Source: an uncultured Gammaproteobacteria bacterium (GTDB lineage Bacteria > Patescibacteriota > Patescibacteriia > Magasanikbacterales > UBA922). From it: a DNA stretch of 64,000 bases. The position numbers were made by a program, and so were the translations under genes. Where the stretch lies: contig CAZFKS010000006.1 in assembly GCA_964519725.1 (NCBI GenBank), forward strand, positions 355 through 64,354, in the 5' to 3' direction. Below are positions 5,866-59,278 of the stretch, piece after piece (the stretch's first letter is position 1; each line of letters starts with the position of its first letter). A model generated the notes under the pieces. That model was not told where the DNA came from, did no database searches, and saw only the letters and a list, made by a program, of their open reading frames with translations.

Positions 5866-6022
5866 ACTGGAGCAGTATATGCACAGATTTTTTAGTTTGT
5901 AAATACGCGGACCATAAATTGCCAACCACTGGGCACAAAAGTTATGCACAATGGGAAGCGCGGCAGTCAGATTGACCAGATCTGACTGCCGGTTTTGAGG
6001 TGGGTTCCCCTCGGGAGAGGGG

Positions 6023-8032: not shown

Positions 8033-8091
8033 GACTGCCTCCTGGCAAAATTGAAGTTGACGAACTGGAAACCGAAGAAACATTAATCTTG

Positions 8092-8144
8092 AAATTGCTT
8101 CGGAGTTTAATGACACAGAGTATCACTAAAATCCGAAGCAATTT
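8092..8144. promoter_or_regulatory. 13-bp perfect inverted repeat upstream of the Cys-repeat gene
   Basis: AAATTGCTTCGGA (8092-8104) pairs with TCCGAAGCAATTT (8132-8144), 27-nt spacer. On the plus strand it is followed by GGTCATTTTTTCC. Confidence 0.3.
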
Positions 8145-8369: not shown

Positions 8370-8444
8370 TGGTGGACCAGACGGGAATTGAACCCGCAAT
8401 TTCAGCTTTGCAGGAAGATGTTTTACCAGTTAAACTACTGGCCC
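8370..8444 (-). tRNA. tRNA-like gene (75 nt, CCA encoded), possibly tRNA-Cys(GCA); anticodon stem non-canonical
   Basis: Minus-strand parse: acceptor GGGCCAG/CTGGTCC, U8, D-arm GTTT-AACTGGTA-AAAC with G18G19, T-arm GCGGG-TTCAATT-CCCGT, discriminator A, CCA. The anticodon loop CTGCAAA gives GCA. Only 3 of 5 anticodon-stem pairs (TCTTC/GCTGA) form. An A/T-rich 12-bp inverted repeat (8339-8366) follows immediately. Confidence 0.55.
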
Positions 8445-11229: not shown

Positions 11230-11778
11230 ATGCCAGCGACCATAGCTGAAAAAAAACTGGTTTACCAGGTAATCAAAAATCGTGATCCACAGGCCTTTGC
11301 GGCTCTGTACGATTTGTACGTTGGTAAGATATACCGGTTTATCTTCTTTAAAGTTTCTAAAAAAGAAGACGCTGAAGATCTGACCAGTGATGTCTTTCTA
11401 AAGACCTGGCAGTATTTGGCAGAAAAAACTGACCGTGAAGTCAAAAGCTTTAGTGGTCTTATTTATCAAGTGGCACGCAATGTACTGGTTGATTGGTACC
11501 GACTCCGTGCGAGTCGTCCAGAAACCCCACTTGATCTGGCCCCTGAAATTAGTGTGGATGAAAAAGCCTTTGCAGCCCTTGATGTGAATCAGGCCGCCAG
11601 TGAAGTGCTCAAAGTTGTGCGCCAGTTAAAACAAGAGTACCAAGAAATTATTTTGCTCCGGTACATTGAAGAACTATCAATTAAAGAAATTAGCCATATT
11701 TTAAAAAAGTCACCAGTAAGCGTGCGAGTGACTTTGCACCGGGCCATTACGGTTTTAAAAAAAGCGCTTCATTTATGA
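11230..11778 (+). CDS. ECF (sigma-70 family, group 4) RNA polymerase sigma factor
   Basis: From the ATG at 11230: region 2 LTSDVFLKTWQY and region 4 ILLRYIEELSIKEISHILKKSPVSVRVTLHRAITVLKKAL. The 11140 start would place the hairpin inside the CDS. Confidence 0.8.
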   Translation: MPATIAEKKLVYQVIKNRDPQAFAALYDLYVGKIYRFIFFKVSKKEDAEDLTSDVFLKTWQYLAEKTDREVKSFSGLIYQVARNVLVDWYRLRASRPETPLDLAPEISVDEKAFAALDVNQAASEVLKVVRQLKQEYQEIILLRYIEELSIKEISHILKKSPVSVRVTLHRAITVLKKALHL

Positions 11779-13007
11779 ACGAGCTCAAGCACAATTTACG
11801 CGCTGTAAAGACCTTAGCTGAAGTTAACCCTGATGCTGAGTGGGTTAAGGCTGGCCGCAGTCGCTTGCTCTCTCAAATTAGTAATACGGTTATTCCAGTT
11901 GATAAGCCAGTTGTGGTAGATACTGCTCATGCCTTTTGGTTCCAATTTCAATCTAGTGCGGTCGTACGCACCTTACGCCCAGCTTTGACTGCGCTTGGGG
12001 TAGCGGCCCTGGCCACTGGTGGTTGGATTGCAAGTGTAAGTGCTTCAGTAAATAGTTTGCCTGGCGACCGGTTGTGGGTAGTTAAGCGCGCGGCGCAAAA
12101 CACTGAACTCGCGGTCCGAAGTTTGGGTGCTAGTGACTCAGAAAAAGTGCAATTACAATTAAATTTAGCGAAAAATCGGGCTGATGATATTAAAAAAGCC
12201 TTTAGTAAAAAATTAACCCCAGAAGCCAGTGCGACTGATCGGGAAAAAGCCGTAAAAGATCTGGCTGTTGCTGTAAAAGACGTACAAAATGTAGTTAAAG
12301 AAGTTTCAAGTAGTGTAAGTGATCAAGTTAAAGAAAATGGTAAAGATAAGCCGCTTGAGTCAGTGGAAACAGTTAAAGGTGTGGCCAAGGACACGACTGA
12401 AATTGCCAAGAGCTTGGCTTCAACCGTGGCCTCTTCAACTGCTGTGGGAGTTGATGTGACTAAACAAGTTTTGGAAACTGTTAAGGTGGTAAATCAAACT
12501 GGAATTAGCGCTGTTGAGGCCGTGATTCAGGGTCCGGCTGGCCTGGCTGAAACTGGCCAAGCTAATAATGTTAAGAATATTGTTTCCGAAAAAGTAGTTG
12601 ATCTGGTACAATCTACCGAAGCTTTAAAAATTGATCTCAGAAATTCGCTCGGAATTTCTGCACCAAGTACCACCGTTGAAACTAAACCGCTCATGCTTAC
12701 TGTACCAACAGCAACCGGAACAGTCGTCGTTACTTTGCCGCTGAACACTAGAACTAATTTGTTTGACAAAATGTTGCTAAATAGTCCAAGTAGTTCAGCT
12801 AGTATTATTAAAGACGCTGAACAAAAAACCGCTGATATTCACCAATCAGCCGTAGACATTAAAAAGAGTATTGATAATGGTAATTTGCAAGAAGCCGTGA
12901 ATAAGTTGAGAGATCTGAATGAAACAGCCGTGACCACGCAACAACAATTAATTGAAACAAAAACCAAAACCGTGGTTGAGGATAAAACTCCTGAACCAAT
13001 CAAATAA
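11775..13007 (+). CDS. putative membrane-anchored anti-sigma factor / DUF5667-like protein
   Basis: ATGA overlap with the sigma gene. ~75-aa N-terminus, one TM helix (LTALGVAALATGGWIASV), then a long K/E/A/V-rich helical extracytoplasmic region. Confidence 0.5.
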   Translation: MNELKHNLRAVKTLAEVNPDAEWVKAGRSRLLSQISNTVIPVDKPVVVDTAHAFWFQFQSSAVVRTLRPALTALGVAALATGGWIASVSASVNSLPGDRLWVVKRAAQNTELAVRSLGASDSEKVQLQLNLAKNRADDIKKAFSKKLTPEASATDREKAVKDLAVAVKDVQNVVKEVSSSVSDQVKENGKDKPLESVETVKGVAKDTTEIAKSLASTVASSTAVGVDVTKQVLETVKVVNQTGISAVEAVIQGPAGLAETGQANNVKNIVSEKVVDLVQSTEALKIDLRNSLGISAPSTTVETKPLMLTVPTATGTVVVTLPLNTRTNLFDKMLLNSPSSSASIIKDAEQKTADIHQSAVDIKKSIDNGNLQEAVNKLRDLNETAVTTQQQLIETKTKTVVEDKTPEPIK

Positions 13008-13196: not shown

Positions 13197-16100
13197 ATGC
13201 AAAACTTGAAGAAATTCGGTAAGAAGCTCTTCACCATGTCAGTGGTTAGCATGACAGTTGCTTGGAGTGTAGGCCTTTCAGCCTTTGTTCCAGCTGCTGC
13301 TGTTGCCGCTGTATGTCCTGAGCTCGAAGCCGGAGACCTTTTCAAAGTTTCAGGTAACTCTGCCGTTTATTTGGTAAGTCCTGAAATGAAGCGTATGTAT
13401 TTCCCAAATGCGGAAGTATATAACTCTTGGTATAAAGATTTCAGTGGTATTACTACCATTGATTCATCATGTGTTGACGCTTACCCATCAGGTGGTGGTG
13501 TAAACTTCCGCCCAGGTTCATTCCTTGTTAAATCTGCTGTTTCTCCATCAGTATTTGCTGTTGGTCCAAACAACATGAAACACAAACTTGGTAGTGAAGC
13601 TGTAGCTTCTGCCCTCTATGGTTCAAACTGGGGCAAGCTCGTTCGCGTTCTCCCAGATGTATTTGACTCAAACTACAATGTTGGTGCTGAGCTTACAACA
13701 GCTATGCTCCACAATGGTCAGTTAGTTAAAAAGTCTGGTGATTCAACCGTTTACTTTGTAATGGATGGCAAGACTGTTAAAGTCGAAGGCTCACTCCCAT
13801 CACAAGTAGCTGGTGATGTTCGCACTGTATCAGAAGCAGTATTTAGTTCAGTTTCAATGGACTCAAACACTGTGACTGGTTCATCTGTAGTATCTAACCC
13901 TTCACAAAAGGGTGGTAGTATTGTTGTTCCTCCAGTAGGAAACGGCAAACTTAAGGTCAGTTTGGCAGCTAACACTCCAGCTGGTACTTATGCTTTGAAA
14001 AATGCTGCTCGTGTTCCATTCACTCGCGTAGTGGTTGAAAACACTGGTGCTACTGACGTTACTATTGATTCATTCAAAGTTGTTCGCGGTGGTTCACCAG
14101 CGCTCAACAGTGATTTTTCAACTGTTAACGTTGTAACCGAAGATGGCAGTCTCTTGAATGACACTGGTAAATCACTCAACTCAGACAACATGGCTACCTT
14201 TACGGAAGACGTGGTTGTTAAGGCTGGTTCTTCACGAACTTTGACCTTGGTTGGTGATATGGCCAACTTCTCATCAGGTGGTGCTGTTCCAACTCTTGGT
14301 CTTTACTCAGTAGAAGCTAATGCGACTGTAGATGGTTCATTACCAGTATATGGTAACCCTGTAACTACTAACGCTTCAGTAACTTTGAGTACTGCTACTG
14401 TTGCCGAAGGTTCAACTATTGGTACTGTTACCAAACAAGTTGGTTCAGCCAATGTTAACCTTGCCAACGTAAAAGTAACCGCTGGCACAGAAGACATGAA
14501 AGTAGAACGCATTGTTCTTAACAACAGTGGTTCACTTGCTGACACTGATGCTGAAAAATTTGTCTTGAAGTACAATGGTAACACTGTTGCCAATGGTACT
14601 CTTAAGAACAAATATCTTACTTTTGATCTCATGAACTGTGGTGATCTCTGTAAGATTGAAAAAGGTAACGACAAAACTTTTGAAGTTTACGGTGATTTGA
14701 CCTCTGGTTCAGGTCGCAGTATCAATCTTGATGTACAACGTGCTACTCACGTACTCGTTAAAGACCTCAAGAACAACTTCTACGTTACCCCAACTAACAA
14801 TGCCTCTTCAATGAGTAACACTGTTAGTGTTTCACAAGGTAAAATTGATGTTTCTAAGACCAATGATGTACAAGCTGGTAACATTCCAGAAAATGCTAGT
14901 GGTACAAAACTTGGTTCATGGAACTTCAAGGTAACCGGTGAACCTATCGACGTTCGCACTTTGGTGTTCAAGATTACCACTACTGGTAGTCTCTCACCTG
15001 ACGATGTTGACAGTCTCACTTTGTACAACAAAGATGGTAAAGCATTGATCGGTGCTGTAGACGGTGTTGGTTCAAGTGCAGCCTCAAACGGCTACGCTAC
15101 CAGTACTGATTCATTCACCCTTCAACCTGGTGATAACGTTCTTACTGTTAAAGGTAAGATCGACAGTTCAGCTACTGCTAACGACACTGTAGCAATCTCA
15201 GTTGACATGAGTAACTCAAGCAACTTTGATGCTCGTGGTGTAAACAGTAATGAAACTATCACTGTTGGTACTTACGCTACTCCAGCTTCTGTAGTAGCTG
15301 CCAACACTTTGACAATCAAAGGTTCAGCTCTTCGCGTAACTACTTTGTCTACTCCTCCTGCAACTACGTTTGCCGCTGGTACTAACGATGTAGTATTTGC
15401 TAAAGTGCTCCTTGATGCTTCTGATTCTTCAGAAGATGTTAAAGTAACCCAATTCAAAGTAACTGACGTAACTAACACTACTGCTAAAGCTATTGATGTT
15501 CAAAACATTCGTTTGTTTGTGGACAAAGATGGTGACAGCTTCAATGGTGCTGGTACTGCTACTGCTTTGACTGAAACTGTAAGTGGCTCAGACTCAACTG
15601 CTGGTAATGACGAAGTCTTTACCTTCAATTTTAGTGGCTCAGATCAATTTGTGATCAAAGCCGGTAAAAAAGTTGAAGTTACTGTAAAAGCCAACTTAGC
15701 TGGTTCAGCTGCTGCTGGTAGTCACACTCTTGGTGTGGCCACTGCTGACTATGTTTCTGCTACTGGCGTTACCACTGGTAACACTGTTGTTGAAACTATT
15801 GACTCAGCCGCTGGTCAAGCCATGTCTGTTGGTACTGCTGGTGGTACAGTTGAAGTTTCTCTTGATCCTTCAACTCAAGCCGCTAAGCAATATGCTGCTG
15901 GTACTAAAGGCGTAAGTCTTGCTACCTTCCGCTTTACTGTAACCTCAAGTGAAGATGTATCTCTTGATACTTTGAACTTGACTCAATTGGTTACTGATAC
16001 AGCTAGTACCTCATTCAAGGATTACGACATGGTGTACCTTTACACCACTGGTGGTACCTTGGTAGGTTCAGCTGTTCCAACCTCTTCTGGTAGTGTATTT

Positions 16101-16970
16101 ATTGACTTAGCTGACAACACCTTTGTAGCTAAAGCCAGTGATACAAATGGTACTTCATTGGTAGTTAAAGCTGACTTGTCCAGTATTGGTCCAAGTCAAA
16201 ACGTAACTACTGGTGGCCATGCTATCGGTTACAAGATTAACTCTGCAGGCCAAGCTAAAGCTAAGGGTGCCTTGACTGGTTCAGCTTCAGTTGTTTACTT
16301 CAACTCAAGCGCTCCAACTGGTAACACTCACTACATGTTCAAAGCTGTACCTACTGTACAAGTATGTACTGGTACTGTTGATGATTCAAACAACTGTTTG
16401 AAAGCTGGTGGTTCAAGTCCTGTACTTACCAACGGTTCAAACGACCTTATCCGTTTCCGCGTGACCGCTAATACCGGTGATGTTGGTCTCTATAAGTTCA
16501 CCTTTGACATCACAACAACTACAGCTACTGTTACTACTGTTGAACTCTTTGATACTACAGAATCAAATGAAGTATCATTGTACTCAGCAACTATGACTGC
16601 TTCAGTTCCTTATGTTGAAGCTCTCTTTGACACTGACAGTAGTGGTGTAGGCTCAGGTGGTGAAGAACGCACTGTTTCAGCTGGCACAAGTCGCTACTTC
16701 GTACTCCGTGGTACTGCGACCGGTGTTACTACTGGTGCTTCAGTTTCAACCCGCCTTGGTGGTGACTCTGCTAACTCTGCCGGTATTTCAAGTGCTCGCG
16801 TGATGGACCCAGCATCAACTGTTGATGCTACTGCTAACATCCACGATGACTTCATCTGGTCAGATCGCAGTGCTGGTTCTCACTCAACTTCAACCAATGA
16901 CTGGACAAACGGTTACTTGGTAAGTGGTTTGAACTCAGCCTCATCATCTCCAGTTGTACTTGCGAAATAA
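13197..16970 (+). CDS. large secreted S/T/G/V-rich surface (S-layer-like) protein, 1257 aa
   Basis: Signal peptide MQNLKKFGKKLFTMSVVSMTVAWSVGLSAFVPAAAVAA. Beta-rich repetitive Thr/Ser composition throughout. The strong terminator right after it suggests high expression. Confidence 0.7.
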   Translation: MQNLKKFGKKLFTMSVVSMTVAWSVGLSAFVPAAAVAAVCPELEAGDLFKVSGNSAVYLVSPEMKRMYFPNAEVYNSWYKDFSGITTIDSSCVDAYPSGGGVNFRPGSFLVKSAVSPSVFAVGPNNMKHKLGSEAVASALYGSNWGKLVRVLPDVFDSNYNVGAELTTAMLHNGQLVKKSGDSTVYFVMDGKTVKVEGSLPSQVAGDVRTVSEAVFSSVSMDSNTVTGSSVVSNPSQKGGSIVVPPVGNGKLKVSLAANTPAGTYALKNAARVPFTRVVVENTGATDVTIDSFKVVRGGSPALNSDFSTVNVVTEDGSLLNDTGKSLNSDNMATFTEDVVVKAGSSRTLTLVGDMANFSSGGAVPTLGLYSVEANATVDGSLPVYGNPVTTNASVTLSTATVAEGSTIGTVTKQVGSANVNLANVKVTAGTEDMKVERIVLNNSGSLADTDAEKFVLKYNGNTVANGTLKNKYLTFDLMNCGDLCKIEKGNDKTFEVYGDLTSGSGRSINLDVQRATHVLVKDLKNNFYVTPTNNASSMSNTVSVSQGKIDVSKTNDVQAGNIPENASGTKLGSWNFKVTGEPIDVRTLVFKITTTGSLSPDDVDSLTLYNKDGKALIGAVDGVGSSAASNGYATSTDSFTLQPGDNVLTVKGKIDSSATANDTVAISVDMSNSSNFDARGVNSNETITVGTYATPASVVAANTLTIKGSALRVTTLSTPPATTFAAGTNDVVFAKVLLDASDSSEDVKVTQFKVTDVTNTTAKAIDVQNIRLFVDKDGDSFNGAGTATALTETVSGSDSTAGNDEVFTFNFSGSDQFVIKAGKKVEVTVKANLAGSAAAGSHTLGVATADYVSATGVTTGNTVVETIDSAAGQAMSVGTAGGTVEVSLDPSTQAAKQYAAGTKGVSLATFRFTVTSSEDVSLDTLNLTQLVTDTASTSFKDYDMVYLYTTGGTLVGSAVPTSSGSVFIDLADNTFVAKASDTNGTSLVVKADLSSIGPSQNVTTGGHAIGYKINSAGQAKAKGALTGSASVVYFNSSAPTGNTHYMFKAVPTVQVCTGTVDDSNNCLKAGGSSPVLTNGSNDLIRFRVTANTGDVGLYKFTFDITTTTATVTTVELFDTTESNEVSLYSATMTASVPYVEALFDTDSSGVGSGGEERTVSAGTSRYFVLRGTATGVTTGASVSTRLGGDSANSAGISSARVMDPASTVDATANIHDDFIWSDRSAGSHSTSTNDWTNGYLVSGLNSASSSPVVLAK

Positions 16971-42176: not shown

Positions 42177-42914
42177 ATGACCGAAAATCAGCCCAAACCA
42201 GCCTTGTCAGTGGTTATACTGTGCTACCGTGCCGAGGACTTTGCGCCAGTGTTTGTGGGTCAGATGGAAGAAGCTCTAAAAAAAGCTAATCTTGATTATG
42301 AATTAGTGCTCGTGGCTAATTACCAAAAAAATGCCGCGAAACCAGACCGGACACCCCAAATTGTGCGTGATCTAGCCAAGACTAACCCGCGGCTGCTAGT
42401 AGTGGCCAAGGAAAAAGAGGGGATGATGGGTTGGGATATGCGCTCTGGTCTTGAAGCGGCAACGGGTGATGTGATTGGTGTGATTGATGGCGACGGACAA
42501 ATGCCCCCAGCGGATATAATTAAAATTTATGATGTTTTGAAACAGGGGAATTATGATCTGGCCAAAACCTACCGTGTGCAGCGGTTTGATGGTCTATTTC
42601 GGGTGGTTATTTCTAAATTCTACAATGCTTTTTTCAAAATTTTATTTCCCAAAGCCAAAGTTCGGGATGTAAATTCCAAACCAAAAATGTTCACCAGGGC
42701 TGCCCTAGAAAAATTAAAATTAACCTCCAGTGATTGGTTTATTGATGCGGAAATTATGATTCAGGCTGGTGAGTTAGGGTTTAAAATTGGCCAGGCCCCA
42801 ACTGATTTTTACCCAAATGAAAATCGAAAATCATTTGTAAAGTTTAGTGCGATTTTTGAATTCATGGCGAACCTAGTCAAGTACCGAATTAAAATCTGGA
42901 AGCACAAGGTATGA
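42177..42914 (+). CDS. GT2 glycosyltransferase
   Basis: LSVVILCYRAEDF..., a DxD-like VIDGDGQ, and a small soluble Dpm1-like architecture. Confidence 0.7.
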   Translation: MTENQPKPALSVVILCYRAEDFAPVFVGQMEEALKKANLDYELVLVANYQKNAAKPDRTPQIVRDLAKTNPRLLVVAKEKEGMMGWDMRSGLEAATGDVIGVIDGDGQMPPADIIKIYDVLKQGNYDLAKTYRVQRFDGLFRVVISKFYNAFFKILFPKAKVRDVNSKPKMFTRAALEKLKLTSSDWFIDAEIMIQAGELGFKIGQAPTDFYPNENRKSFVKFSAIFEFMANLVKYRIKIWKHKV

Positions 42915-44692
42915 GTAGGTTTACTAGTCTTGTCCAAAAAATACAAGCTCATTGGCTTATCTTAGTGTCAGCACTGGTGTTGACACTAATTATTTTTTAC
43001 CCAGTTTTTGCTCTACCGCAGTATTTAAAGGGTGAGTACCAGGGAATTAATTTTGTTCATTTTGGCAGTGACAGTCATTTTTATTTGACCAGAGCCAAAG
43101 AAGCTCTGGAAGGTAAACCAATGGGGAATCCTTTTTTGCGTGAAGGTAAAACTGAACTTGATCTTTTCTTCATGCATAATGAGCAAATTTTAACCGCACC
43201 CTGGCGTTGGCTTGGACTCAGTGACTCGGTAAACATTGTTCATATTTATAATGCCTACAACTTTATTGGAATTTTTGCTGTTCTAATTCTCATTTATAGC
43301 TTGGCTTTTTTCTTATCAAAAAATAAATTGCAGAGTGCGATCACGGCCATTTCTGTAGTTGGTGGGTATCACTTAGTATATGATAAGGCGTTTTTTTACA
43401 ATGATTTTAATATCTATGGCCGGCCAATGTTTCCGTACATCAGTTCGCTGGTCTTTTTCACCTACTTAAATGTTTTGGTACGCGCACTTAAATATTTAAA
43501 CCAAAAATACTTCTTTGCCCTTAGTTTAGTTTTTGGCGCTATTTTCTACGTTTATTTTTTTGCCTGGACTTTTGCGGTTGCCGTTCATGGTTCTTTATTT
43601 TTACTCTACGCTGCCCAGCGGGACTGGAAGCGGGTTAAGTTTTTGCTAGGCACTGGGGTAATGGGTGTGATCCTGGGTAGTTACCAGTTAATCACCATGG
43701 CTAAGTTCTTCACCTCGCCCTTTGGGGCACAATCTGAATATTTTCACTGGTCAGCTAAAGGCCGAGGTTTAATTTTTAGTAAAATTGGTTTTTTAAGTTT
43801 AATTGTCTTGGTAATTTTACGGTATAAGAAAAAAGAGGATCAGAATTTTATTTTTTTGCTTGGCTTAATTGCGGCTGTGTGGGTGGCGCTCAATCAGCAA
43901 ATTATTACGGGTAAGCTACTTCAAATTGGTCATTATTACTGGTATTTTATTGTGCCGTGTGCCATTATCACAGCCTGGTACGTGGTCTGGCAATTTGTTC
44001 AGAATAAAAAATGGCAGATTGCCATTACCGCGTTTACTTTGGTTGTTGTTGGCGCCCACAGTCTGATTGGGCAACACCAATCTTTTTTAACTACCCTTGA
44101 TCAGCTTCGCTACGAACAGACCTACAAACCAATGCTCGATATTTTAAATCAAGACCAAAACCCAGGAGTAGTTTTAGCGGCAGATGATTACTTGTCTGGT
44201 CTGGTTACTGTTTACACTAACCATGATTTATTTTGGGATCGTTCAGCACTCATGACCTACACTAGCACTGAACGGTTCCGTGATGTGCTCTATTTATTTA
44301 CTTACGTGAATAACGACGCGCGGTTTAATTTTGCCGACTACTATGGTCGGGTAATGGCTGATGGTGCGGCGGAATCATTCTATAAACAACAATATAAAGC
44401 ACTTGAGGGTTTGGCGAGTGGGGTTGATTATTATTCGTACAATGGAAAATTAGCCAAACAGGCCCCTGAATTAATTAGTCAAAGACAAAAGCAATTACCA
44501 GAACTTGCGAGCGAGTACAAAGCCAGGGCCAGTACGCCAGCGCTTAGTCGTGATTTGTTTAAGCAGTACCACATTAATTACATAATTTGGGATAAAAAGA
44601 ATCACCCAGAGTGGGATCTATCTTTTTTGACCAATAAAAAAGAATTGTATTCAACCGAAGCCGTTGTGCTTTACCAAGTAACTCAAATATAA
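42911..44692 (+). CDS. polytopic membrane protein with a C-terminal soluble domain, function unknown
   Basis: ~10 TM segments in the first ~380 aa, then a ~210-aa hydrophilic tail. ATGA overlap. No motif recognised. Confidence 0.5.
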   Translation: MSRFTSLVQKIQAHWLILVSALVLTLIIFYPVFALPQYLKGEYQGINFVHFGSDSHFYLTRAKEALEGKPMGNPFLREGKTELDLFFMHNEQILTAPWRWLGLSDSVNIVHIYNAYNFIGIFAVLILIYSLAFFLSKNKLQSAITAISVVGGYHLVYDKAFFYNDFNIYGRPMFPYISSLVFFTYLNVLVRALKYLNQKYFFALSLVFGAIFYVYFFAWTFAVAVHGSLFLLYAAQRDWKRVKFLLGTGVMGVILGSYQLITMAKFFTSPFGAQSEYFHWSAKGRGLIFSKIGFLSLIVLVILRYKKKEDQNFIFLLGLIAAVWVALNQQIITGKLLQIGHYYWYFIVPCAIITAWYVVWQFVQNKKWQIAITAFTLVVVGAHSLIGQHQSFLTTLDQLRYEQTYKPMLDILNQDQNPGVVLAADDYLSGLVTVYTNHDLFWDRSALMTYTSTERFRDVLYLFTYVNNDARFNFADYYGRVMADGAAESFYKQQYKALEGLASGVDYYSYNGKLAKQAPELISQRQKQLPELASEYKARASTPALSRDLFKQYHINYIIWDKKNHPEWDLSFLTNKKELYSTEAVVLYQVTQI

Positions 44693-50915: not shown

Positions 50916-53171
50916 ATGTCTAAACCAGTCAAAATTATTGCTACACTTGGTCCGGCTACAAAAACTGAAGCAGCCGTTCGTTTACTCAAAGATCGGGGTG
51001 TGGATTTAGTGCGCGTAAACATGTCGCACTCAAATTTGACTGACCTTAGGTATTTTATTGATTTAGCTAAAAAGGTTGGGATTCCGTTTGTGCTTGATAC
51101 TGAAGGCTCACAAATTCGAACTGGGGCTTTAACTGAAAAAATGATTTATGTTGAAGAGGGGGCTGAGATAGCTCTGTACGCTGACGCAATTATTGGGGAT
51201 AGTACCAAGCTAACCTTAACCCCACACACGGTTGTTAGTGAACTAGAAGCAGGAGATATTTTGCGCGTGGATTTTGACACTTTGATTTTGCGCGTCAATG
51301 ACACCAGTACGGTTAAACAAGGATTTATCAAAGCCACGGCTGTATCAGCCGGTTACGTGGGCAATAATAAAGGCGTGGTGGTGGATACGGGCACGCCGCG
51401 CAACTTTACCCTGCCTGGTTTAACCGCCAAAGATCGAGAAGCGATTGCCATTGGCTTGGCCGAAGGCGTGGGTTACATTGCGGCTTCATTTATGCGCTCA
51501 GCGGCTTATGTAGATGAAGTACGGGAAGTCACTAAAGGAACCATGAAAATTATTTCTAAAATTGAGTGTGTTGATGGTCTAGAAAATTTAGACGAAATTA
51601 TTGAGGCCACTGATTTTTTACTAATTGATCGGGGTGATTTAAGTAAGGAAATTCCTTTGGAAAAAATTCCTTTGACCCAAAAAATTATTTTGCACCGGGC
51701 ACGCCAAAAAAATAAAGGTGTGTTTGTGGCGACTAATTTGCTAGAAACCATGGTGGAAAAAAAGAAACCAACGCGCGCTGAAATTCACGATGTGGTAAAT
51801 ACAATTATGGATGGTGCTTATGGTTTGGCCCTGTCAGCTGAAACAGCAATTGGTAAATATCCAGTTGAATGCGCTACGATGCTTAATCGTTTGATCTTGC
51901 ACATTGATAAAACTGTGGCTGTAAAAGATTTTGTATCAGAAGAAGACAAACTGGTGGCCAAAATGGAGTCAGATAATTATTTGTTAAATATTGAATCAGC
52001 CTCTACTTTAATTGAGCCACACGGCGGCAAATTAGTTGACCGCATGCTAAAGAAAAAACCTGAGACAGCCTGGCTTAAAACCTTACCAAAAATTGCCCTG
52101 GATGATAATGCGGAAATGGATGTGGAGCAAATTGCGATCGGCACTTTTAGTCCGCTAACTGGTTTCATGGGTGAAAAAGAAGTGCAGAGTGTGCTTGATA
52201 CCATGCGTTTACCAAATGGTTTGATTTGGCCACTGCCAATTGTCCTGGATGTAAATGAAGAAACCGCTAAAAAATTAGAAGTCGGTAAACAGGCGGTGCT
52301 CCAAAGTGTTCAGGGAACAGCCTTGGCTCTTATTACCGTGAGTGAATTATATTCGATTGATAAAAAAGAATTTGCCGAAAAATTATACGGTACCTTAGAT
52401 GAGACTCACCCTGGGGTGGCGCGGGTGATGAAAATGAACCCAGTCTTAGTGGCTGGGGCGATTGATTTGTTTGAGCGCCGTCCATCTGAAACCAGGGCCT
52501 ATGAATTAACCCCACGGCAAGTGCGTCGTTTGTTTGATGAGCGCGGCTGGACCAAAGTAGTTGGTTTTCATACCCGCAATGTTATTCACCGTAGTCATGA
52601 ATTTATTCAATTAAAAGCCATGGAACAGGAATTGTGTGATGGCCTGTTTGTACACCCAGTAATTGGAAAGAAAAAACCTCGTGATTTTAATGCTCCTTAC
52701 ATTATCAAGAGCTATGAAATGATGATGAAGGATTTTTATCCTCGCAATAAAGTGGTGTTTGCTACTTACGCTACTTTTTCTCGTTACGCTGGTCCGCGTG
52801 AAGCACTGTTTACTGCTCTCTGCCGGCAAAACTTTGGCTGTAGTCACTTTATTGTTGGACGCGATCACACGGGAGTTGGGAAATTTTACGCACCAACGGC
52901 GTCACATGATATTTTTGATCAATTTCCTGATTTGAAAATTAAACCCGTGCGTTTTGAACAAGTTTTTTACTCTGCTAAAAAGAATGACCACGTGCACGAG
53001 GCGGAAGATACTGAACATGCTCAAGACGAGAAACTTCACATTAGTGGGACTGAAGCGCGCAAAATGTTAGAAAAAGGCCAGCTTCCACCCAACTGGTTTA
53101 TGCGTCCAGAAATTTCAGAGATGATTCTAAAGGCGCTGGCTAATGGCGAAGAAGTTTTTGTTAAAGAATAA
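50916..53171 (+). CDS. fusion protein: pyruvate-kinase-like TIM-barrel domain (N) + sulfate adenylyltransferase / ATP sulfurylase (C)
   Basis: N-terminal ~340 aa: IIATLGPAT...LVRVNMSHSN...LDTEGSQIRTG...ISKIECVDGLENLDEII...DRGDLSKEIP...VATNLLETM. The PK active-site Arg/Asn, Lys-Ile-Glu, Asp and Thr are all kept, and there is no PK C-terminal domain. C-terminal ~400 aa: HTRNVIHRSHE and IVGRDHTGVG are ATP-sulfurylase signatures. It is a single uninterrupted ORF. Confidence 0.7.
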   Translation: MSKPVKIIATLGPATKTEAAVRLLKDRGVDLVRVNMSHSNLTDLRYFIDLAKKVGIPFVLDTEGSQIRTGALTEKMIYVEEGAEIALYADAIIGDSTKLTLTPHTVVSELEAGDILRVDFDTLILRVNDTSTVKQGFIKATAVSAGYVGNNKGVVVDTGTPRNFTLPGLTAKDREAIAIGLAEGVGYIAASFMRSAAYVDEVREVTKGTMKIISKIECVDGLENLDEIIEATDFLLIDRGDLSKEIPLEKIPLTQKIILHRARQKNKGVFVATNLLETMVEKKKPTRAEIHDVVNTIMDGAYGLALSAETAIGKYPVECATMLNRLILHIDKTVAVKDFVSEEDKLVAKMESDNYLLNIESASTLIEPHGGKLVDRMLKKKPETAWLKTLPKIALDDNAEMDVEQIAIGTFSPLTGFMGEKEVQSVLDTMRLPNGLIWPLPIVLDVNEETAKKLEVGKQAVLQSVQGTALALITVSELYSIDKKEFAEKLYGTLDETHPGVARVMKMNPVLVAGAIDLFERRPSETRAYELTPRQVRRLFDERGWTKVVGFHTRNVIHRSHEFIQLKAMEQELCDGLFVHPVIGKKKPRDFNAPYIIKSYEMMMKDFYPRNKVVFATYATFSRYAGPREALFTALCRQNFGCSHFIVGRDHTGVGKFYAPTASHDIFDQFPDLKIKPVRFEQVFYSAKKNDHVHEAEDTEHAQDEKLHISGTEARKMLEKGQLPPNWFMRPEISEMILKALANGEEVFVKE

Positions 53172-53173
53172 TT

Positions 53174-54430
53174 ATGACAAGCCTTAATGCTTTAGAATTG
53201 TCGCGTTTCATCTTTGCTCTTGTCGCTCTGGTAGCTGGTGCACATTGTTTGGGGTGGGTTTTTCAAAAGTGTAAAATGCCCAAGGTAATTGGGGAGATTA
53301 GTGCCGGTTTATTGCTTGGCCCAACAGTTTTAGGTTGGCTTTACCCGGTTGGATATAGTTATTTATTTACCAGTTTTCCAGAATCAAGCAAATTATTATC
53401 ACTCATGTCATCATTTGGCTTGATTTTTCTCATGTTTATTTCTGGATTTGAATCCAAAGAAAAAATTGCTAAACCAGATCAAAAAATTGTTGTTAACTTG
53501 CTTTTGGGAGCCACAATCATTCCACTCTTAGGTGGTTGGTTTATTCCTAAAATATTCGATATCAAGCCATTTTTAGGTACAGCCAATAATCTCCCGGCAC
53601 TCACTGCAATTTTGGCTTTGGCAGTAGCTGTCACTTCAATTCCAGTGATTGCAAAAATTTTTCTTGACCTCGGTCTGATCCAAACTAGGTTTGCCCGTCT
53701 TGTTTTGGCCGTAGCCACGCTTGAAGATATTATTTTGTGGGGAATTCTGGCGGTAGTGAGTGGTGTAATTGTCAAAGGTGATACGTCGGTTACAAGTATC
53801 TTGGTTAGTGTGGCTATTACCATGGCATTTTTTGTGGTTGCGCTTTTGGTAGTACCGCGAGTCATAAAACCAATCAGTAATAATCGGTTTAACATATTAA
53901 TAAAAGCATCGCCAGTTTCATATATTTTAATTATTTGTTTAATTTTTTCTTTTTTAGCTAGTGTACTCAATGTAAATTTAATTTTTGGTGCTTTATTGGC
54001 GGGCATTATCGTCGCTCGCATGAATGATGAGCGTTTTGAAAAAGTAAAAAATACGATCAAAGATTTTTCCGTTGCCCTCTTTATTCCGGTCTATTTTGCT
54101 GTGGTTGGTTTAAAATTAGATTTAGTACATGCGTTCGATGTCTCTGCCTTTATTACGTTTCTATTGTTTGCCATAGTACTAAAAACTGCAGGTACTTTAA
54201 TTGCCGCCAAGGGTTTGAGAATGAACTGGACCTCAAGCGTAAATTTTGCGGTGGCTTTGAATGCACGCGGTGGCCCTGGTATTGTCTTGGCAACAGTGGC
54301 GTATGACCTTGGAATTATTAACCAAAGTTTGTTTGTAATTTTGGTTATGACCGCGATTGTTACTTCACTTTTGGCGGGTATTTGGTTTAGAAGGGAACGT
54401 GAAAGTGGCCGTGAATTATTACCAGAATAA
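53174..54430 (+). CDS. cation:proton antiporter (CPA/Na_H_exchanger family) membrane protein
   Basis: MPKVIGEISAGLLLGPTVLGWL is the N-terminal CPA signature. ~12 TM segments. Confidence 0.6.
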   Translation: MTSLNALELSRFIFALVALVAGAHCLGWVFQKCKMPKVIGEISAGLLLGPTVLGWLYPVGYSYLFTSFPESSKLLSLMSSFGLIFLMFISGFESKEKIAKPDQKIVVNLLLGATIIPLLGGWFIPKIFDIKPFLGTANNLPALTAILALAVAVTSIPVIAKIFLDLGLIQTRFARLVLAVATLEDIILWGILAVVSGVIVKGDTSVTSILVSVAITMAFFVVALLVVPRVIKPISNNRFNILIKASPVSYILIICLIFSFLASVLNVNLIFGALLAGIIVARMNDERFEKVKNTIKDFSVALFIPVYFAVVGLKLDLVHAFDVSAFITFLLFAIVLKTAGTLIAAKGLRMNWTSSVNFAVALNARGGPGIVLATVAYDLGIINQSLFVILVMTAIVTSLLAGIWFRRERESGRELLPE

Positions 54431-54431
54431 T

Positions 54432-54959
54432 ATGAGTACAATTCTTTGGTTTACTGGTTTAAGCGGGAGTGGCAAGACCACCTTGGCTTTTTTGCTCAAA
54501 GAAAAATTAGAACAAGGTGGCAAAACAGTCACTATTGTGGATGGTGACACGGTGCGTGATAAATATGAACAGAAATTAGGTTTTACCAGAGCTGATATTA
54601 TTCAAAATAATGACCGCATCACCACGTACATAACTGAAATTAAAAACCAGTTTGATTTTATTTTAGTGCCAGTGATTGCGCCGTTTAGTGAAGTACGTGC
54701 GGCCAATAAAACCAAATTGGGGGCAGATTATTTAGAAATTTATGTGTCATGCCCAGTGGCGGTGTGTGCGGAGCGTGATGTAAAAGGTCTGTATGCCAAA
54801 GCTGAACGTGGTGAAATTGAAGCCATGATTGGGATTGATCCGCAAAAACCATACGAAGTTCCAACTAACCCCGATCTGATCATTGATACAGTTAATCAGA
54901 GTCAGTCAGAAAACATTGAAGCTTTGCTAGAATGGTTAAAGGGTCTGCAGAAAATATGA
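54432..54959 (+). CDS. cysC: adenylyl-sulfate (APS) kinase
   Basis: The ATG at 54432 gives ILWFTGLSGSGKTTLA...VDGDTVR, P-loop APS-kinase motifs. The track start 54357 is an extension. Confidence 0.85.
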   Translation: MSTILWFTGLSGSGKTTLAFLLKEKLEQGGKTVTIVDGDTVRDKYEQKLGFTRADIIQNNDRITTYITEIKNQFDFILVPVIAPFSEVRAANKTKLGADYLEIYVSCPVAVCAERDVKGLYAKAERGEIEAMIGIDPQKPYEVPTNPDLIIDTVNQSQSENIEALLEWLKGLQKI

Positions 54960-55753
54960 CCCCATCATTTTCGTCAGATTTGGTTTTGGCTATTCAGGCG
55001 GCTGAGGCGGCTGGTAAAGCCGTAACGCAAATTTATCAAACTGATTATTCATTCCAAATCAAGTCAGACAATTCGCCAGTAACAGAGGCTGATTTGGTGA
55101 GTGATCAAATCATTAGTACAACTTTAGCAAAAACTAATTACCCAATTAGTTCTGAGGAAAATGAACATCTGACCGATTGTAGTGTGGGTAAGGCCTGGAT
55201 CGTTGATCCACTTGATGGGACGAAAGATTTTATTGCAAAAACTGGCGAATTTACAATTTTAATTGGTTTAATTGAAAATGGACAAGCTGTGGCCGGGGTA
55301 ATTTACCAGCCAACCACTAATTTGATTTGGGTGGCGGAAAAAGGCAAGGGCGCTTATAAGCGGGTGCAAAATAATTGGGAAAAAATTTGGGTAAGAGAAC
55401 AGACTGAACTTAGCACAGCGCAGGTCACCATGAGTCGACACCATTTAGGAGAACTAGAAAAAAATATTTTGCAGACTTTGGGTTTAAGCTACACCTCAAA
55501 AGGTAGCTGCGGTTATAAAATGGCCCAAATTGCTTCGGGGAAGTTTGATCTTTACTTTGCGTTTGGGCCCAAACAGTGGGACATATGCGCTGGTGACATT
55601 ATTTTGGCTGAGGCCGGGGGTAGTTTAACCCAGGTCACGGGCGAACCCATTCAGTACGGTGGTTTGGACAGGAAAATTCCTAATGGTATAATCGCTGCCA
55701 GTGGTGTACACCGCCAATTTATTGATTTTTACAAACAGTATGGCAAAAACTAA
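54956..55753 (+). CDS. cysQ: 3'(2'),5'-bisphosphate nucleotidase (inositol-monophosphatase fold, CysQ-like)
   Basis: ATGA overlap with cysC. EENEHL...WIVDPLDGTKDFI...WDICAG motifs. Confidence 0.75.
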   Translation: MTPSFSSDLVLAIQAAEAAGKAVTQIYQTDYSFQIKSDNSPVTEADLVSDQIISTTLAKTNYPISSEENEHLTDCSVGKAWIVDPLDGTKDFIAKTGEFTILIGLIENGQAVAGVIYQPTTNLIWVAEKGKGAYKRVQNNWEKIWVREQTELSTAQVTMSRHHLGELEKNILQTLGLSYTSKGSCGYKMAQIASGKFDLYFAFGPKQWDICAGDIILAEAGGSLTQVTGEPIQYGGLDRKIPNGIIAASGVHRQFIDFYKQYGKN

Positions 55754-56702
55754 AGCCGTGGTTGGGGAGCGCAAACCATTTGTTAAAAAGCTGCTTTTGG
55801 TAGAAGGTATTTCTCGGTCTGGAAAATTTCTCATGGCTGATCTTTTGGGTGGCTTAGAAGGTATTGAGGCCGTCCAGTATTATGGACTTTTAGAACACAT
55901 TCCATTTTTGGAAAAGTTTGGGTTAATGGACCGTAAAACTGCTAGTGAAATTTTAAAGTGTGAAATTGATACGCATGCTTATGAAATGGCGATTGGGCGT
56001 AATTTTAATCACCGGAAAACGGACAAATCATCAATTCATAAAAATCCGCACGCGGCTAAATTTCTCAAACGCCCAGAACAAAGTGATCTAGAAAAATTAC
56101 TGGCTGAATATCGCAAGCAGGATCCATATAGTTTTTTTGTCATGCACGAGCTTATTCCGAACGCGAAAATATTTTTTGAAACTTTTCCAAATTTAAAAAT
56201 TGTTAGTTTGCAGCGCAGCCCAGTGGAATTAGTAGATTCGTGGTATCGTCGCGGGTTGGCAAAACGCCTGGGTGATGATCCAACGTTATTTATTATTCCT
56301 TTTAAAAAAGGCAAAGCTAAGTTTCCGTGGTATGCGGTGGGCCAGGAAAAAGAATACAGCCAACTAACTGATATGGATCGGACAATTTTTGCCATTGAGC
56401 GAATTGTAAGTCTGTATGCAGAAGGTTTGAAGAAATTAAATAAAAAAGAGCAGGCCCAAATTTTGTTTGTACGGTACGAAGATATCATGACTGATACTAA
56501 AGTGGTAGTAAAAAAGATTAGTAACTTTTTGGGTAAAAAACCCGTGAAACAACTGGCGGCGGTGCTTAAGCGAGAGCGGTTACCAAACCTTGCTTACCGT
56601 GGCACACGTGAGCAAAAATTGCAAAGCATTAAAAAATTGGCCAGCCCAAGTTATTTCAAGCGTTTGCAAAAATTAGAGGCCAAATATTTGATTAGCCAGT
56701 AA
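55740..56702 (+). CDS. putative PAPS-dependent sulfotransferase
   Basis: LLLVEGISRSGKFLMADLL resembles the 5'-PSB loop of bacterial/Stf0-type sulfotransferases. The C-terminal VRYEDIMTD...ISNFLG resembles the sulfotransferase tail. It sits right after sat/cysC/cysQ. Confidence 0.4.
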   Translation: MAKTKAVVGERKPFVKKLLLVEGISRSGKFLMADLLGGLEGIEAVQYYGLLEHIPFLEKFGLMDRKTASEILKCEIDTHAYEMAIGRNFNHRKTDKSSIHKNPHAAKFLKRPEQSDLEKLLAEYRKQDPYSFFVMHELIPNAKIFFETFPNLKIVSLQRSPVELVDSWYRRGLAKRLGDDPTLFIIPFKKGKAKFPWYAVGQEKEYSQLTDMDRTIFAIERIVSLYAEGLKKLNKKEQAQILFVRYEDIMTDTKVVVKKISNFLGKKPVKQLAAVLKRERLPNLAYRGTREQKLQSIKKLASPSYFKRLQKLEAKYLISQ

Positions 56703-57462: not shown

Positions 57463-58094
57463 CTCAACCAATTGTTGTAATCATTGATTATGGCGTGGGA
57501 AATTTGCACAGCTTAGCGCGCGCGTTCCGGGCGGTTGGAGCAAACCCAATTATTTCCAGTGATCCTGAAATGATTAAAACCGCCCCTCGGTTAGTTTTGC
57601 CTGGTGTAGGTGCGTTTGCGGCTGGCATGCACGGGCTTCAGGAACGCGGCCTAGAAGCCGCAGTCTTAGCGGCCGCAGCTAGAAACATCCCAATTTTAGG
57701 GATTTGTTTAGGGGCGCAGCTACTTTTGACTGAAGGCCATGAATTTGGTATTTTTAAAGGGTTAAATTTGATTCCTGGTACAGTGGAACGTTTCCCTGAT
57801 TTGCCAGAAAAAGAGAAAATTCCTCATATGGGTTGGAATCAAATTACCCCAGCCTCAGGTAAGGAATGGTCAGACACTATTTTATCAGGCACAGAAGGAA
57901 AAGAAACGTATTTTCTCCATTCTTATATTTTGCGCCCGACAGACAAACAAGATTGTTTGTCAGAAACAACGTATGGTGGCTACACTTTTTGTTCAGTGGT
58001 TAAAAAAAATAACATTACTGGTTGTCAGTTTCATCCAGAAAAAAGTGGTGAAGTTGGTTTAGAAATTATTAGAAATTTTTCCAAGAGCGTATGA
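57459..58094 (+). CDS. HisH-like glutamine amidotransferase subunit (WbuY-type)
   Basis: IVVIIDYGVGNLHSLARAF...LVLPGVGAF...CLGAQ...QFHPEKS is a class I GATase triad. ATGA overlap. Confidence 0.8.
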   Translation: MTQPIVVIIDYGVGNLHSLARAFRAVGANPIISSDPEMIKTAPRLVLPGVGAFAAGMHGLQERGLEAAVLAAAARNIPILGICLGAQLLLTEGHEFGIFKGLNLIPGTVERFPDLPEKEKIPHMGWNQITPASGKEWSDTILSGTEGKETYFLHSYILRPTDKQDCLSETTYGGYTFCSVVKKNNITGCQFHPEKSGEVGLEIIRNFSKSV

Positions 58095-59278
58095 GTTTAA
58101 ATACTCTGGATAAGCAATTAAGTGAACAGCAAGCTGAAGTTTTTTATTGCACTAAATGTGTAGTTTCTAACCAACGCCCGCGGGTAACTTTTGATGAAAA
58201 TGGAGTGTGTGCCGCGTGTCAGTACGCTGAGATTAAACATCAGCGCATTGATTGGGCTGCTCGCGAAGCTGAACTAAAAGTTTTACTGGATAAACACCGT
58301 TCGACTGACGGTAGTTTTGATGTTGTAGTGCCTGGTAGTGGTGGCAAAGACAGCGCGTACGTAGCTCATCTTTTAAAGACTGAATATGGAATGCACCCGC
58401 TCGTTGTGACCTGGGCTCCATTTATTTACACTGAGATTGGGTGGAAGAATTTTCAAAATTTTATCCAAGCTGGTTTTACTGATTTAAATTGTTTTCCTGA
58501 CGCGACTATTCACCGCAAATTAGCCCGGATTGCCTTTGAATTAAAAGGTGATGCTTGGGAACCATTTGGCTATGGTCAAAAATCTTACGCTTTTCACATT
58601 GCCACCAAATTTAAAATTCCACTTATTTTTTACGGAGAAAATGGAGAAGCAGAATATGGCGGGTCACTGCAAAATGCTTATAAACCCTACGAATCAGTGG
58701 AAGATTGGGAGCGTTTATATTACAAAGGTTCGGGGGTTGACGCTTTGGCTGAAGCAGGTCTTGAAATGGGAATTTTTAAACCAGGCGAAATTGAGCCACA
58801 CACGTTAGATTTGTACAAAGCTCCACCTCTTGAAGAAATCAATAAACTGGGTATCCAGATGCACTGGATGTCATATTACCGCAAGTGGGTGCCACAGGAA
58901 AATTTTTACTACGCGCAAAAAAATACTGGTTTTACTACTAATGAAGATGGTCGTTCAGAAGGTACGTATTCTAAATATGCTAGTCTGGATGATAAAACTG
59001 ATGGTTTTCATTTTTATCTTGGTTTTATTAAGTTTGGTTTAGGACGAGCCACTCGCGACGCCATGATGGAAATTCGGTCTGGGCATATTACCCGTGAAGA
59101 AGCCGTGGCTCTAGTTCGCCGGTATGATGGCGAATTTCCAAAAAAATATTTTAAAGAATTTTTAGAATACTTGAATATTACTGAAGAAAAATTTTGGGAA
59201 GTGGTTGATCGCTACCGTGCGCCACATCTTTGGGAAAAAGTTAATGGTGAGTGGAAATTAAAATATCAAGTTGAATAA
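58091..59278 (+). CDS. N-acetyl-sugar amidotransferase (WbuX/PseA/LegAm-type, PP-loop)
   Basis: FYCTKCVVSNQRPRVTFDENGVCAACQY is a Zn-ribbon. VVVPGSGGKDSAYVAHLL is a PP-loop. ATGA overlap. Confidence 0.75.
   Translation: MSLNTLDKQLSEQQAEVFYCTKCVVSNQRPRVTFDENGVCAACQYAEIKHQRIDWAAREAELKVLLDKHRSTDGSFDVVVPGSGGKDSAYVAHLLKTEYGMHPLVVTWAPFIYTEIGWKNFQNFIQAGFTDLNCFPDATIHRKLARIAFELKGDAWEPFGYGQKSYAFHIATKFKIPLIFYGENGEAEYGGSLQNAYKPYESVEDWERLYYKGSGVDALAEAGLEMGIFKPGEIEPHTLDLYKAPPLEEINKLGIQMHWMSYYRKWVPQENFYYAQKNTGFTTNEDGRSEGTYSKYASLDDKTDGFHFYLGFIKFGLGRATRDAMMEIRSGHITREEAVALVRRYDGEFPKKYFKEFLEYLNITEEKFWEVVDRYRAPHLWEKVNGEWKLKYQVE

Follow-up and report, generated by a model that had tools for sequence, protein, structure and literature searches.

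What is a pyruvate kinase doing at the front of an ATP sulfurylase? The question is raised by one gene in a stretch of 64,000 nucleotides of contig CAZFKS010000006.1 (assembly GCA_964519725.1, from an uncultured patescibacterium of the order Magasanikbacterales), which is referred to here as the window. The open reading frame (ORF) of this gene contains no internal stops on translation, and joins the TIM barrel of a pyruvate kinase (PK) to a complete ATP sulfurylase (Sat), as an initial annotation of the window had proposed and as translation, Pfam and NCBIfam all indicate. With a little better than even confidence, we favour the view that its product is a bifunctional enzyme of a dedicated module, which would supply 3'-phosphoadenosine 5'-phosphosulfate (PAPS) for the sulfation of surface glycans, and in which the PK half would remove ADP and regenerate ATP at the expense of phosphoenolpyruvate (PEP).

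Pfam analysis of the fusion ORF at E ≤ 0.01 revealed only PK, PUA_2 and ATP-sulfurylase domains (Table 1). There was no match to HpcH/HpaI or another barrel family, nor to the APS kinase domain PF01583 (adenosine 5'-phosphosulfate (APS) kinase, CysC, is encoded by a separate gene downstream), nor to the PK C-terminal domain PF02887, which bears out the suggestion that the regulatory domain of PK is missing. A closer relation of the N-terminal part to a non-PK barrel such as HpcH/HpaI, which would have spoken against the initial annotation, is not borne out, and all matches of aa 1-350 among PDB sequences are pyruvate kinases (the best is Geobacillus 2e28, E 3e-59). The best match of the C-terminal half is 8a8d, the ATP sulfurylase of Methanothermococcus thermolithotrophicus (E 3e-103). 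In the fusion protein the place of the PK C-terminal regulatory domain is occupied by a junction, in which aa 330-355 are of low conservation in the family alignment and the helices were assigned from the secondary structure of an AlphaFold2 (AF2) model.

The NCBIfam models for PK matched the fusion only to profile position ~360 of ~476, and all of them stayed below their cut-offs, including the PK equivalog TIGR01064 (278.7 vs 306.4). The score was likewise below the cut-off for NF004040, the model of bifunctional Sat/APS kinase (280.7 vs 669), and above it for the Sat models TIGR00339 (356.6 vs 322.95) and PRK04149 (444.3 vs 387). None of the matching NCBIfam models covers both halves. The AF2 model of the fusion (75 sequences) has a mean pLDDT of 91.7 and a pTM of 0.89, and this overall confidence suggests a fixed arrangement of the two halves. 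In Foldseek comparisons the PK half superposes on domains A and B of E. coli PykF (~345 columns, rmsd ~3 Å) and the Sat half on 8a8d (43% identity, TMt 0.94, rmsd 2.0 Å), while of the 50 best PDB matches not one gives a good superposition on both halves. Judged from its sequence, the protein is a Sat by the membership criteria, and a PK by fold and catalytic residues, though not by the C domain, the equivalog score or the residue-117 rule considered below.

Both halves look catalytically competent. In an alignment of the window protein with the best 120 of its listed relatives (121 members, 58-83% identity), the residues of the PK catalytic set given in Table 1 are invariant, except for T62 and T273, which are nearly so. 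They include the Arg and Asn of the RVNMSH block (R33, N35), the Lys and Glu of Lys-Ile-Glu (K215, E217), the Asp of RGDL (D241) and the Thr of TNLLET (T273), all of which the initial annotation had named. The catalytic or substrate-binding residues of the rabbit enzyme are R72, N74, S76, D112, T113, R119, K206, K269, E271, D295, T327 and E363. The PK set is also retained in 78 PK-Sat representatives from a wider search described below, down to ~36% identity. The Sat motifs FHTRN..H..HE, RYAGPRE and GRDHTG, two of which had been noticed at the outset (as HTRNVIHRSHE and GRDHTG), are invariant or nearly so in the same 121 members. In the window protein FHTRNVIHRSHE and GRDHTG align with FQTRNVPHLGHE and GRDHAG of 8a8d. 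The fused Sat domains have a signature of their own, FH(T/S/G)RN for the usual FQTRN and GRDH(T/S)G for GRDHAG; the changes from Q to H and from A to T read as clade-specific variants, and in yeast ATP sulfurylase both positions line the sulfate/APS pocket.

The conservation of both catalytic sets bears on the idea that the PK half acts as a scaffold without catalysis, or as a sensor of PEP or nucleotides, and so regulates or oligomerises the sulfurylase (or conversely that the Sat half regulates the PK in some members). Such a role would suit the location of the Sat module, which sits exactly at the position of the PK regulatory C domain. Moreover, in about 7 of 52 divergent full-length PK-Sat representatives (among P0122-P0270) the HxxH and GRDHxG motifs of Sat have seemingly been lost and the PK catalytic residues kept, an observation that may include alignment error; in these members the Sat-like half may be a regulatory domain replacing the PK C domain. 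This count is based on alignment and on full-length representatives only; it replaced a search for Sat motifs by regular expression, in which 36 of 81 representatives were unmatched, many of them partial and others with variant motifs. However, two catalytic sets that are invariant or nearly so in the window protein and the best 120 relatives listed would be unexpected in a pseudoenzyme, and we regard a scaffold or sensor role as highly improbable for this protein.

An assembly join or a frameshift at about residue 340, the point at which it had been suspected, is ruled out as the origin of the ORF. The independent Logan assembly SRR11567520 contains an identical gene of 751 aa, preceded by the same neighbours, and the architecture recurs in numerous unrelated assemblies, among them complete replicons from bacteria in culture.

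The fusion had been considered an unusual rarity, and in this respect the initial annotation has to be corrected, as the gene belongs to a large family spread across many phyla. All of the best 120 homologues listed (58-83% identity) consist of PK, PUA_2 and ATP-sulfurylase domains; 21 of them add an APS kinase domain, and 1 adds an N-terminal nucleotidyltransferase. A second list of 120 homologues is likewise filled by proteins of this architecture. The protein P0009 (1019 aa) has the order nucleotidyltransferase-PK-Sat. Scanning with peptide patterns, in one genome per species, detected the full-length fusion in at least 58 species genomes, a number that is a lower bound, as the patterns were drawn from the window query alone. 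The carriers comprise many Patescibacteria lineages of the candidate phyla radiation (CPR), Woesearchaeota and Nanoarchaeia (DPANN), Chloroflexota (in one case on a single contig of 10.4 Mb), Gemmatimonadota, Actinomycetota, Acidimicrobiia, Gaiellales, Omnitrophota, Victivallales and others. The fusion was also found on contigs of 6-14 Mb of Ardenticatenaceae, Caldilineaceae and Mesorhizobium amorphae. A distant branch of the fusion (39% identity, 99% coverage) is present in the cultured Ensifer adhaerens and Sinorhizobium chiapasense and, by the names of the sources, in Rhizobium sp. ARZ01, M. amorphae and a Caldilineaceae metagenome-assembled genome (MAG). In E. adhaerens CTYH.Ch1 it is encoded at 774655-776820 of NZ_CP118611.1. 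In the phage collection there were PK-barrel matches only, and no match to the full-length fusion.

To place the PK half, aa 1-350 were compared with 1.84 billion representative proteins (50% identity), and the top 150 representatives were sorted by architecture into PK-Sat (78), PK-Sat-APS kinase (3), PK-APS kinase without Sat (2, P0125 and P0191, both confirmed with Pfam), free-standing PKs of ~330-360 aa without the C domain (32), PKs of ordinary length, ~470 aa (11), other architectures (12) and fragments (11). All architecture classes retain the catalytic residues. The fused and short PKs have a common signature that is absent from ordinary PKs, at positions 63 (E, sometimes Q, as opposed to K or Q in ordinary PKs), 66 (Q; E or K), 238 (D; A), 243 (S; G), 244 (R or K; V), 274 (N; Q) and 308 (A; G). 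At the level of motifs, DTEG(S/A)Q is found for DTKGPE, DRGDLS(R/K)E for ARGDLGVE, and ATN for ATQ. In an approximate rabbit-PK numbering, the substitutions are K114E, E117Q, A292D, G297S, I298R/K and Q328N. Neighbour-joining places the canonical PKs in a single group of 25 sequences that contains no fusion, and a split sets this group apart from all the fusions and from 31 of the 32 short PKs. The split was read from the unrooted tree; the midpoint root fell inside the fusion PKs and is uninformative on their monophyly. The PK half of the fusion thus groups as a member of a distinct clade lacking the C domain, which we call PK-S. What had been annotated as a catalytically intact PK does have its catalytic residues intact, but it is not an ordinary PK, since its clade carries invariant changes at conserved motif positions. 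Two other fusions of the PK barrel, neither of them with the PK-S signature, are P0217 (1051 aa; PK-PK-adenylate kinase) and P0252 (786 aa; type I phosphodiesterase/nucleotide pyrophosphatase-PK).

The genetic context of the window gene points to sulfation. On the plus strand a glycosyltransferase, an FkbM-type methyltransferase and a capsule-synthesis protein are followed by PK-Sat, a transporter, APS kinase, a CysQ-like phosphatase and a sulfotransferase, and then by a HisF/HisH-like pair, a cytidylyltransferase, oxidoreductases and NeuB. From PK-Sat to the sulfotransferase, successive genes are spaced by 0-3 nt or overlap. The CysQ-like protein is presumed to be a phosphatase of 3'-phosphoadenosine 5'-phosphate (PAP). 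The start of cysC is likely to be the ATG at 54432, directly after the transporter stop, rather than the listed TTG at 54357, and the true start of the sulfotransferase gene may lie downstream of the GTG at 55701. The whole region from ~17.8 to 63 kb of the window is one long surface-glycan cluster, mostly on the plus strand, which also encodes an O-antigen ligase-like protein, several glycosyltransferases, a GDP-mannose dehydratase, a DegT aminotransferase and, among the oxidoreductases, members of the GFO/IDH/MocA family. This gene content suggests that its product would be a sulfated glycan with a nonulosonic acid.

A census of the fusion loci in the 58 species genomes (up to 10 kb on each side) gave a similar picture. 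APS kinase is encoded within 3 kb downstream or is fused in 38 of the 58 loci, half of which (19) are in-frame PK-Sat-CysC fusions. Sulfotransferase homologues were detected in 22 loci and CysQ homologues in 11, and in ~11 loci a homologue of the window sulfotransferase (43-51% identity) lies just downstream of the fusion or of CysC. The commonest other neighbours encode GDP-mannose dehydratase, cytidylyltransferase, NeuB, UDP-GlcNAc 2-epimerase, glycosyltransferases, flippases and DegT aminotransferases. The gene for the PK-APS kinase fusion P0125 (L085) is flanked by sulfotransferase and glycan genes. Free-standing PK-S genes on long contigs (from a Gaiellaceae MAG, a Thermoplasmata MAG and an Actinomycetota MAG, among other sources) have a sulfotransferase gene within three genes in 10/10 loci, mostly adjacent, and most of these loci are in glycan clusters. 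Beside some of them there are genes for phosphoesterases (PF04185), a few with CarboxypepD_reg, the loci in question (L082 and L084, Table 1) being from Gaiellaceae and Thermoplasmata MAGs.

These contexts also bear on the simplest account of the PK half, namely that it is the housekeeping glycolytic PK of its host, fused to Sat with no functional coupling or with only a dual role. Many carriers are indeed CPR bacteria or DPANN archaea with minimal genomes, and no second PK is encoded within the 64-kb window. Nevertheless, the fusion is also found in the large genomes mentioned above and in E. adhaerens, all of which presumably have a normal pyk gene, and the clade of the PK half is separate from canonical PKs and linked to sulfation genes in all contexts observed, fused or free. 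We therefore consider this explanation very unlikely.

Under the reading that we prefer, a dedicated PAPS-supply module, the Sat half would convert ATP and sulfate to APS and pyrophosphate (PPi), and the separately encoded APS kinase would convert APS to PAPS with the release of ADP; the sulfotransferase would consume PAPS, and the CysQ-like phosphatase would remove PAP. Beside these two ATP-using steps the PK half, lacking the C domain and presumably unregulated, would use PEP to convert ADP back to ATP, so that the net reaction would be sulfate + ATP + PEP → PAPS + PPi + pyruvate. The strongly exergonic PK step would also help to pull the very unfavourable equilibrium of the sulfurylase forward. 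The PEP-driven rephosphorylation of ADP, one of two functions put forward in the initial annotation, gains comparative support from the frequency of adjacent or fused APS kinase (38/58), the PK-APS kinase and triple fusions, and the presence of the rest of the PAPS pathway in the window operon. PK-S is found as a fusion with Sat, with APS kinase or with the two together, in keeping with a role at both ATP-using steps. We infer the two activities, their coupling and any physical channelling from architecture, conservation, clade structure and neighbourhoods. Published work on the separate enzymes is in line with such a coupling: a review describes an APS/ADP dead-end complex and notes that ATP sulfurylase binds ADP and APS almost identically (PMC3734648), human PAPSS1 formed almost no PAPS in vitro without added PK/PEP regeneration (PMC9885120), and pyrophosphatase is a helper enzyme naturally fused to ATP sulfurylase, whose equilibrium it pulls (PMC2275785).

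Several observations weigh against this reading. No APS kinase was detected nearby in 20 of the 58 fusion loci, and neither Sat nor APS kinase is encoded within 6-7 kb of the free-standing PK-S genes (10/10 loci), where a generic soluble PK beside sulfotransferases would add little in a genome already having one. Furthermore, the invariant substitutions of PK-S are at positions highly conserved in ordinary PKs (the DTKGPE, ARGDLGVE and ATQ motifs), because of which its substrate or cation preference may differ. The clearest case is Q66, which is invariant in the 121 relatives and present in 77 of the 78 PK-Sat representatives. It aligns with residue 117 of rabbit PK, which according to two papers is Glu in K+-dependent and Lys in K+-independent PKs (PMC8835810, PMC4374775); the Gln of PK-S is neither.

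The other function originally envisaged, a novel PEP-dependent chemistry, is kept alive by these invariant changes, at a lower probability. PK-S would then be a specialised phosphotransferase whose requirement for acceptor or cofactor has changed, using PEP, for example, to phosphorylate a PAP-derived or other adenine nucleotide in PAPS/PAP recycling. The separate signature of the fused Sat and the pairing of all ten free-standing PK-S genes with sulfotransferases, with no Sat or CysC nearby, would fit such an enzyme, as would the Gln at the position of rabbit residue 117. On the other hand, all known residues binding PEP, Mg2+, K+ and the phosphates of ADP are kept, and the canonical route (APS to PAPS, PAP to AMP) is fully encoded, with the APS kinase frequently adjacent or fused and CysQ in the window. 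Several of the signature positions might also reflect the loss of the C domain and of allostery. Taken together, a changed acceptor seems rather unlikely.

A gene of the CPA (Na_H_Exchanger) family, such as the one 3 nt downstream of the window fusion gene, recurs beside PK-S in hosts ranging from CPR bacteria to Thermoplasmata and the cultured Ensifer (39-53% identity among four of the proteins). The product of the window gene is a candidate for the ion or sulfate transporter of the module. We know of no CPA-family sulfate transporter; the CPA neighbour may be an importer of sulfate of a new kind, or may transport cations for the PK. In locus L095 a TauE/TSUP anion-transporter gene is at a position similar to that of the CPA gene. 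In a broader and, in our opinion, unlikely scheme, PK-S would have an altered cation or nucleotide specificity and would be the hallmark enzyme of a sulfation system, driven by PEP and so far unrecognised, that also comprises Sat, APS kinase, a CPA-type transporter and sulfotransferases. Its substrate might be, e.g., a 3'-phosphorylated adenine nucleotide, so that PAP would be recycled towards PAPS, or nucleotides might be channelled in a fixed complex; the Sat half with FHTRN and GRDHTG would then be co-adapted to PK-S.

The initial annotation knew of no described PK::Sat architecture, and our search of the full text of 8 million papers likewise found none describing such an enzyme. It is not mentioned in PMC7495880, and a survey from 2008 that covers the fusions of ATP sulfurylase names APS kinase, APS reductase and pyrophosphatase as partners, with PK not among them (PMC2275785). 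The family is large and widespread, and appears to be undescribed.

Among known systems, the PAPS synthases and Sat-APS kinase fusions (human PAPSS1/2; Aquifex aeolicus 2gks, a significant match to the fusion by both sequence and fold) are likewise multi-domain sulfate-activating enzymes with the same Sat fold. They carry an APS kinase, which the window ORF lacks, although some of its relatives add one at the C-terminus, and the N-terminal partner in PK-Sat would regenerate a co-substrate instead of catalysing a pathway step. No PAPS synthase with a PK module is known to us. CysDN, the heterodimeric ATP sulfurylase of many bacteria, consists of the PP-loop ATPase CysD and the GTPase CysN; it also couples a second energy source to sulfate activation, but has an unrelated fold, and its coupling is mechanistic, via GTP hydrolysis, whereas that of PK-Sat would be by substrate regeneration. 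The closest parallel with a helper enzyme is the ATP sulfurylase-pyrophosphatase fusion of stramenopiles and haptophytes (PMC2275785). There the fused partner likewise removes a product, namely PPi, whereas PK-Sat would remove ADP and supply ATP at the cost of PEP; the former is found in eukaryotic algae and oomycetes, the latter in bacteria and archaea. Canonical PKs (Geobacillus 2e28, S. aureus 3t05, E. coli PykF 1pky) have the A+B fold and the catalytic residues in common with the window protein (~33-40% identity), but the latter has no C-terminal allosteric or tetramerisation domain, and its genomic context is that of sulfation and not glycolysis. The homo-oligomeric Sat 8a8d, to which the Sat half is closest among solved structures, stands alone as an enzyme and has FQTRN and GRDHAG in place of FHTRN and GRDHTG. 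Finally, an engineered in vitro PAPS cascade combines the same activities, Sat, APS kinase and PK, in a man-made mixture of separate enzymes (PMC9885120), while in PK-Sat they are joined by gene fusion and naturally conserved.

Table 1. Coordinates of the fusion gene, its domains and motifs, its neighbours, and related genes in other loci. Positions are those of the window unless a locus (L) is named.
Feature	Residues (aa)	Position	Strand	Details
PK-Sat fusion gene	751	50916..53171	+	ATG start, stop codon included; ORF list and translation
PK A+B barrel	4-319	50925..51872	+	Pfam PF00224, E 4e-71, profile 3-327 of 328
Junction	320-365	51873..52010	+	last A-domain helix 316-333, extra helix 337-352, poorly conserved linker
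PUA_2, N-terminal domain of ATP sulfurylase	366-520	52011..52475	+	Pfam PF14306, E 8e-50
ATP sulfurylase catalytic domain	528-739	52497..53132	+	Pfam PF01747, E 2e-77
PK catalytic set				R33 N35 S37 H38 D61 T62 R68 K152 K215 E217 D241 T273 E309
PK-S signature residues				E63 S65 Q66 C218 D238 S243 K244 N274 A308
Sat motif FHTRNVIHRSHE	551-562	52566-52601		
Sat motif RYAGPREA	623-630			
Sat motif GRDHTG	648-653	52857-52874		
CPA / Na_H_Exchanger-family transporter		53174..54430	+	Pfam PF00999, E 5e-46
APS kinase (CysC)		54432..54959	+	Pfam PF01583, E 3e-44; domain from aa 27 of the longer ORF
CysQ-like inositol-monophosphatase-family protein		54932..55753	+	Pfam PF00459, E 9e-51
Sulfotransferase		55701..56702	+	Pfam Sulfotransfer_1, E 3e-11; Sulfotransfer_3
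PK-S::APS kinase fusion without sulfurylase, P0125	533	L085 3070-4671		
PK-S::APS kinase fusion without sulfurylase, P0191	505			
PK-S::APS kinase fusion without sulfurylase, P0382	518			
Free-standing PK-S genes	~340-366	~6001-7100 or 7001-8090		loci L082-L084, L087-L090, L092-L095
Na_H_Exchanger (CPA) genes beside PK-S		L025 12789-14033; L037 12268-13530; L084 8867-10090; L088 8057-9373; L091 11832-13088; L093 3404-4901		
Phosphoesterase genes beside free-standing PK-S		L082 7066-8712; L084 1-1894, 7244-8647, 10262-11701		PF04185
Long ORFs without Pfam match	1257; 593; 395; 560; 410	13197-16970; 42911-44692; 58091-59278; 1901-3583; 11775-13007		
Long ORF in GC-richer segment	697	6023-8116	-	
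tRNA-Cys		8370-8444		

Elsewhere in the window, five long ORFs were without a Pfam match at the thresholds used, two of which are inside the glycan cluster. The segment 4001-8000 is GC-richer (48% vs ~41%), with several long ORFs that overlap each other on the two strands; it gave no match to rRNA or any other Rfam family, the only one nearby being a tRNA-Cys. The window also encodes an ECF sigma factor and an OmpR-type regulator, which mark the DNA as bacterial.

Sulfate activation is thermodynamically very unfavourable, and to our knowledge there are three known ways of driving it: (i) GTP hydrolysis (CysDN), (ii) fusion with APS kinase, and (iii) fusion with pyrophosphatase. If the proposed function is true, the PK fusion would add a fourth, with PAPS synthesis coupled directly to substrate-level phosphorylation from PEP. 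It would also be a ready-made natural design for PAPS production, in which engineers add PK/PEP regeneration by hand, and the cultured carriers (E. adhaerens, S. chiapasense and M. amorphae) make the idea directly testable. Members of the fusion family carry the database names 'pyruvate kinase' or 'sulfate adenylyltransferase', and the free-standing PK-S genes are labelled plain 'pyruvate kinase' by their sources. These labels could distort metabolic reconstructions, for instance by attributing a glycolytic PK, or the assimilatory reduction of sulfate, to CPR or DPANN genomes. PK-S is a clade of PKs without the C domain, presumably unregulated, in a genomic context of sulfation rather than glycolysis, and the module suggests that sulfated glycans are common on the surface of CPR bacteria, DPANN archaea and members of several other phyla.

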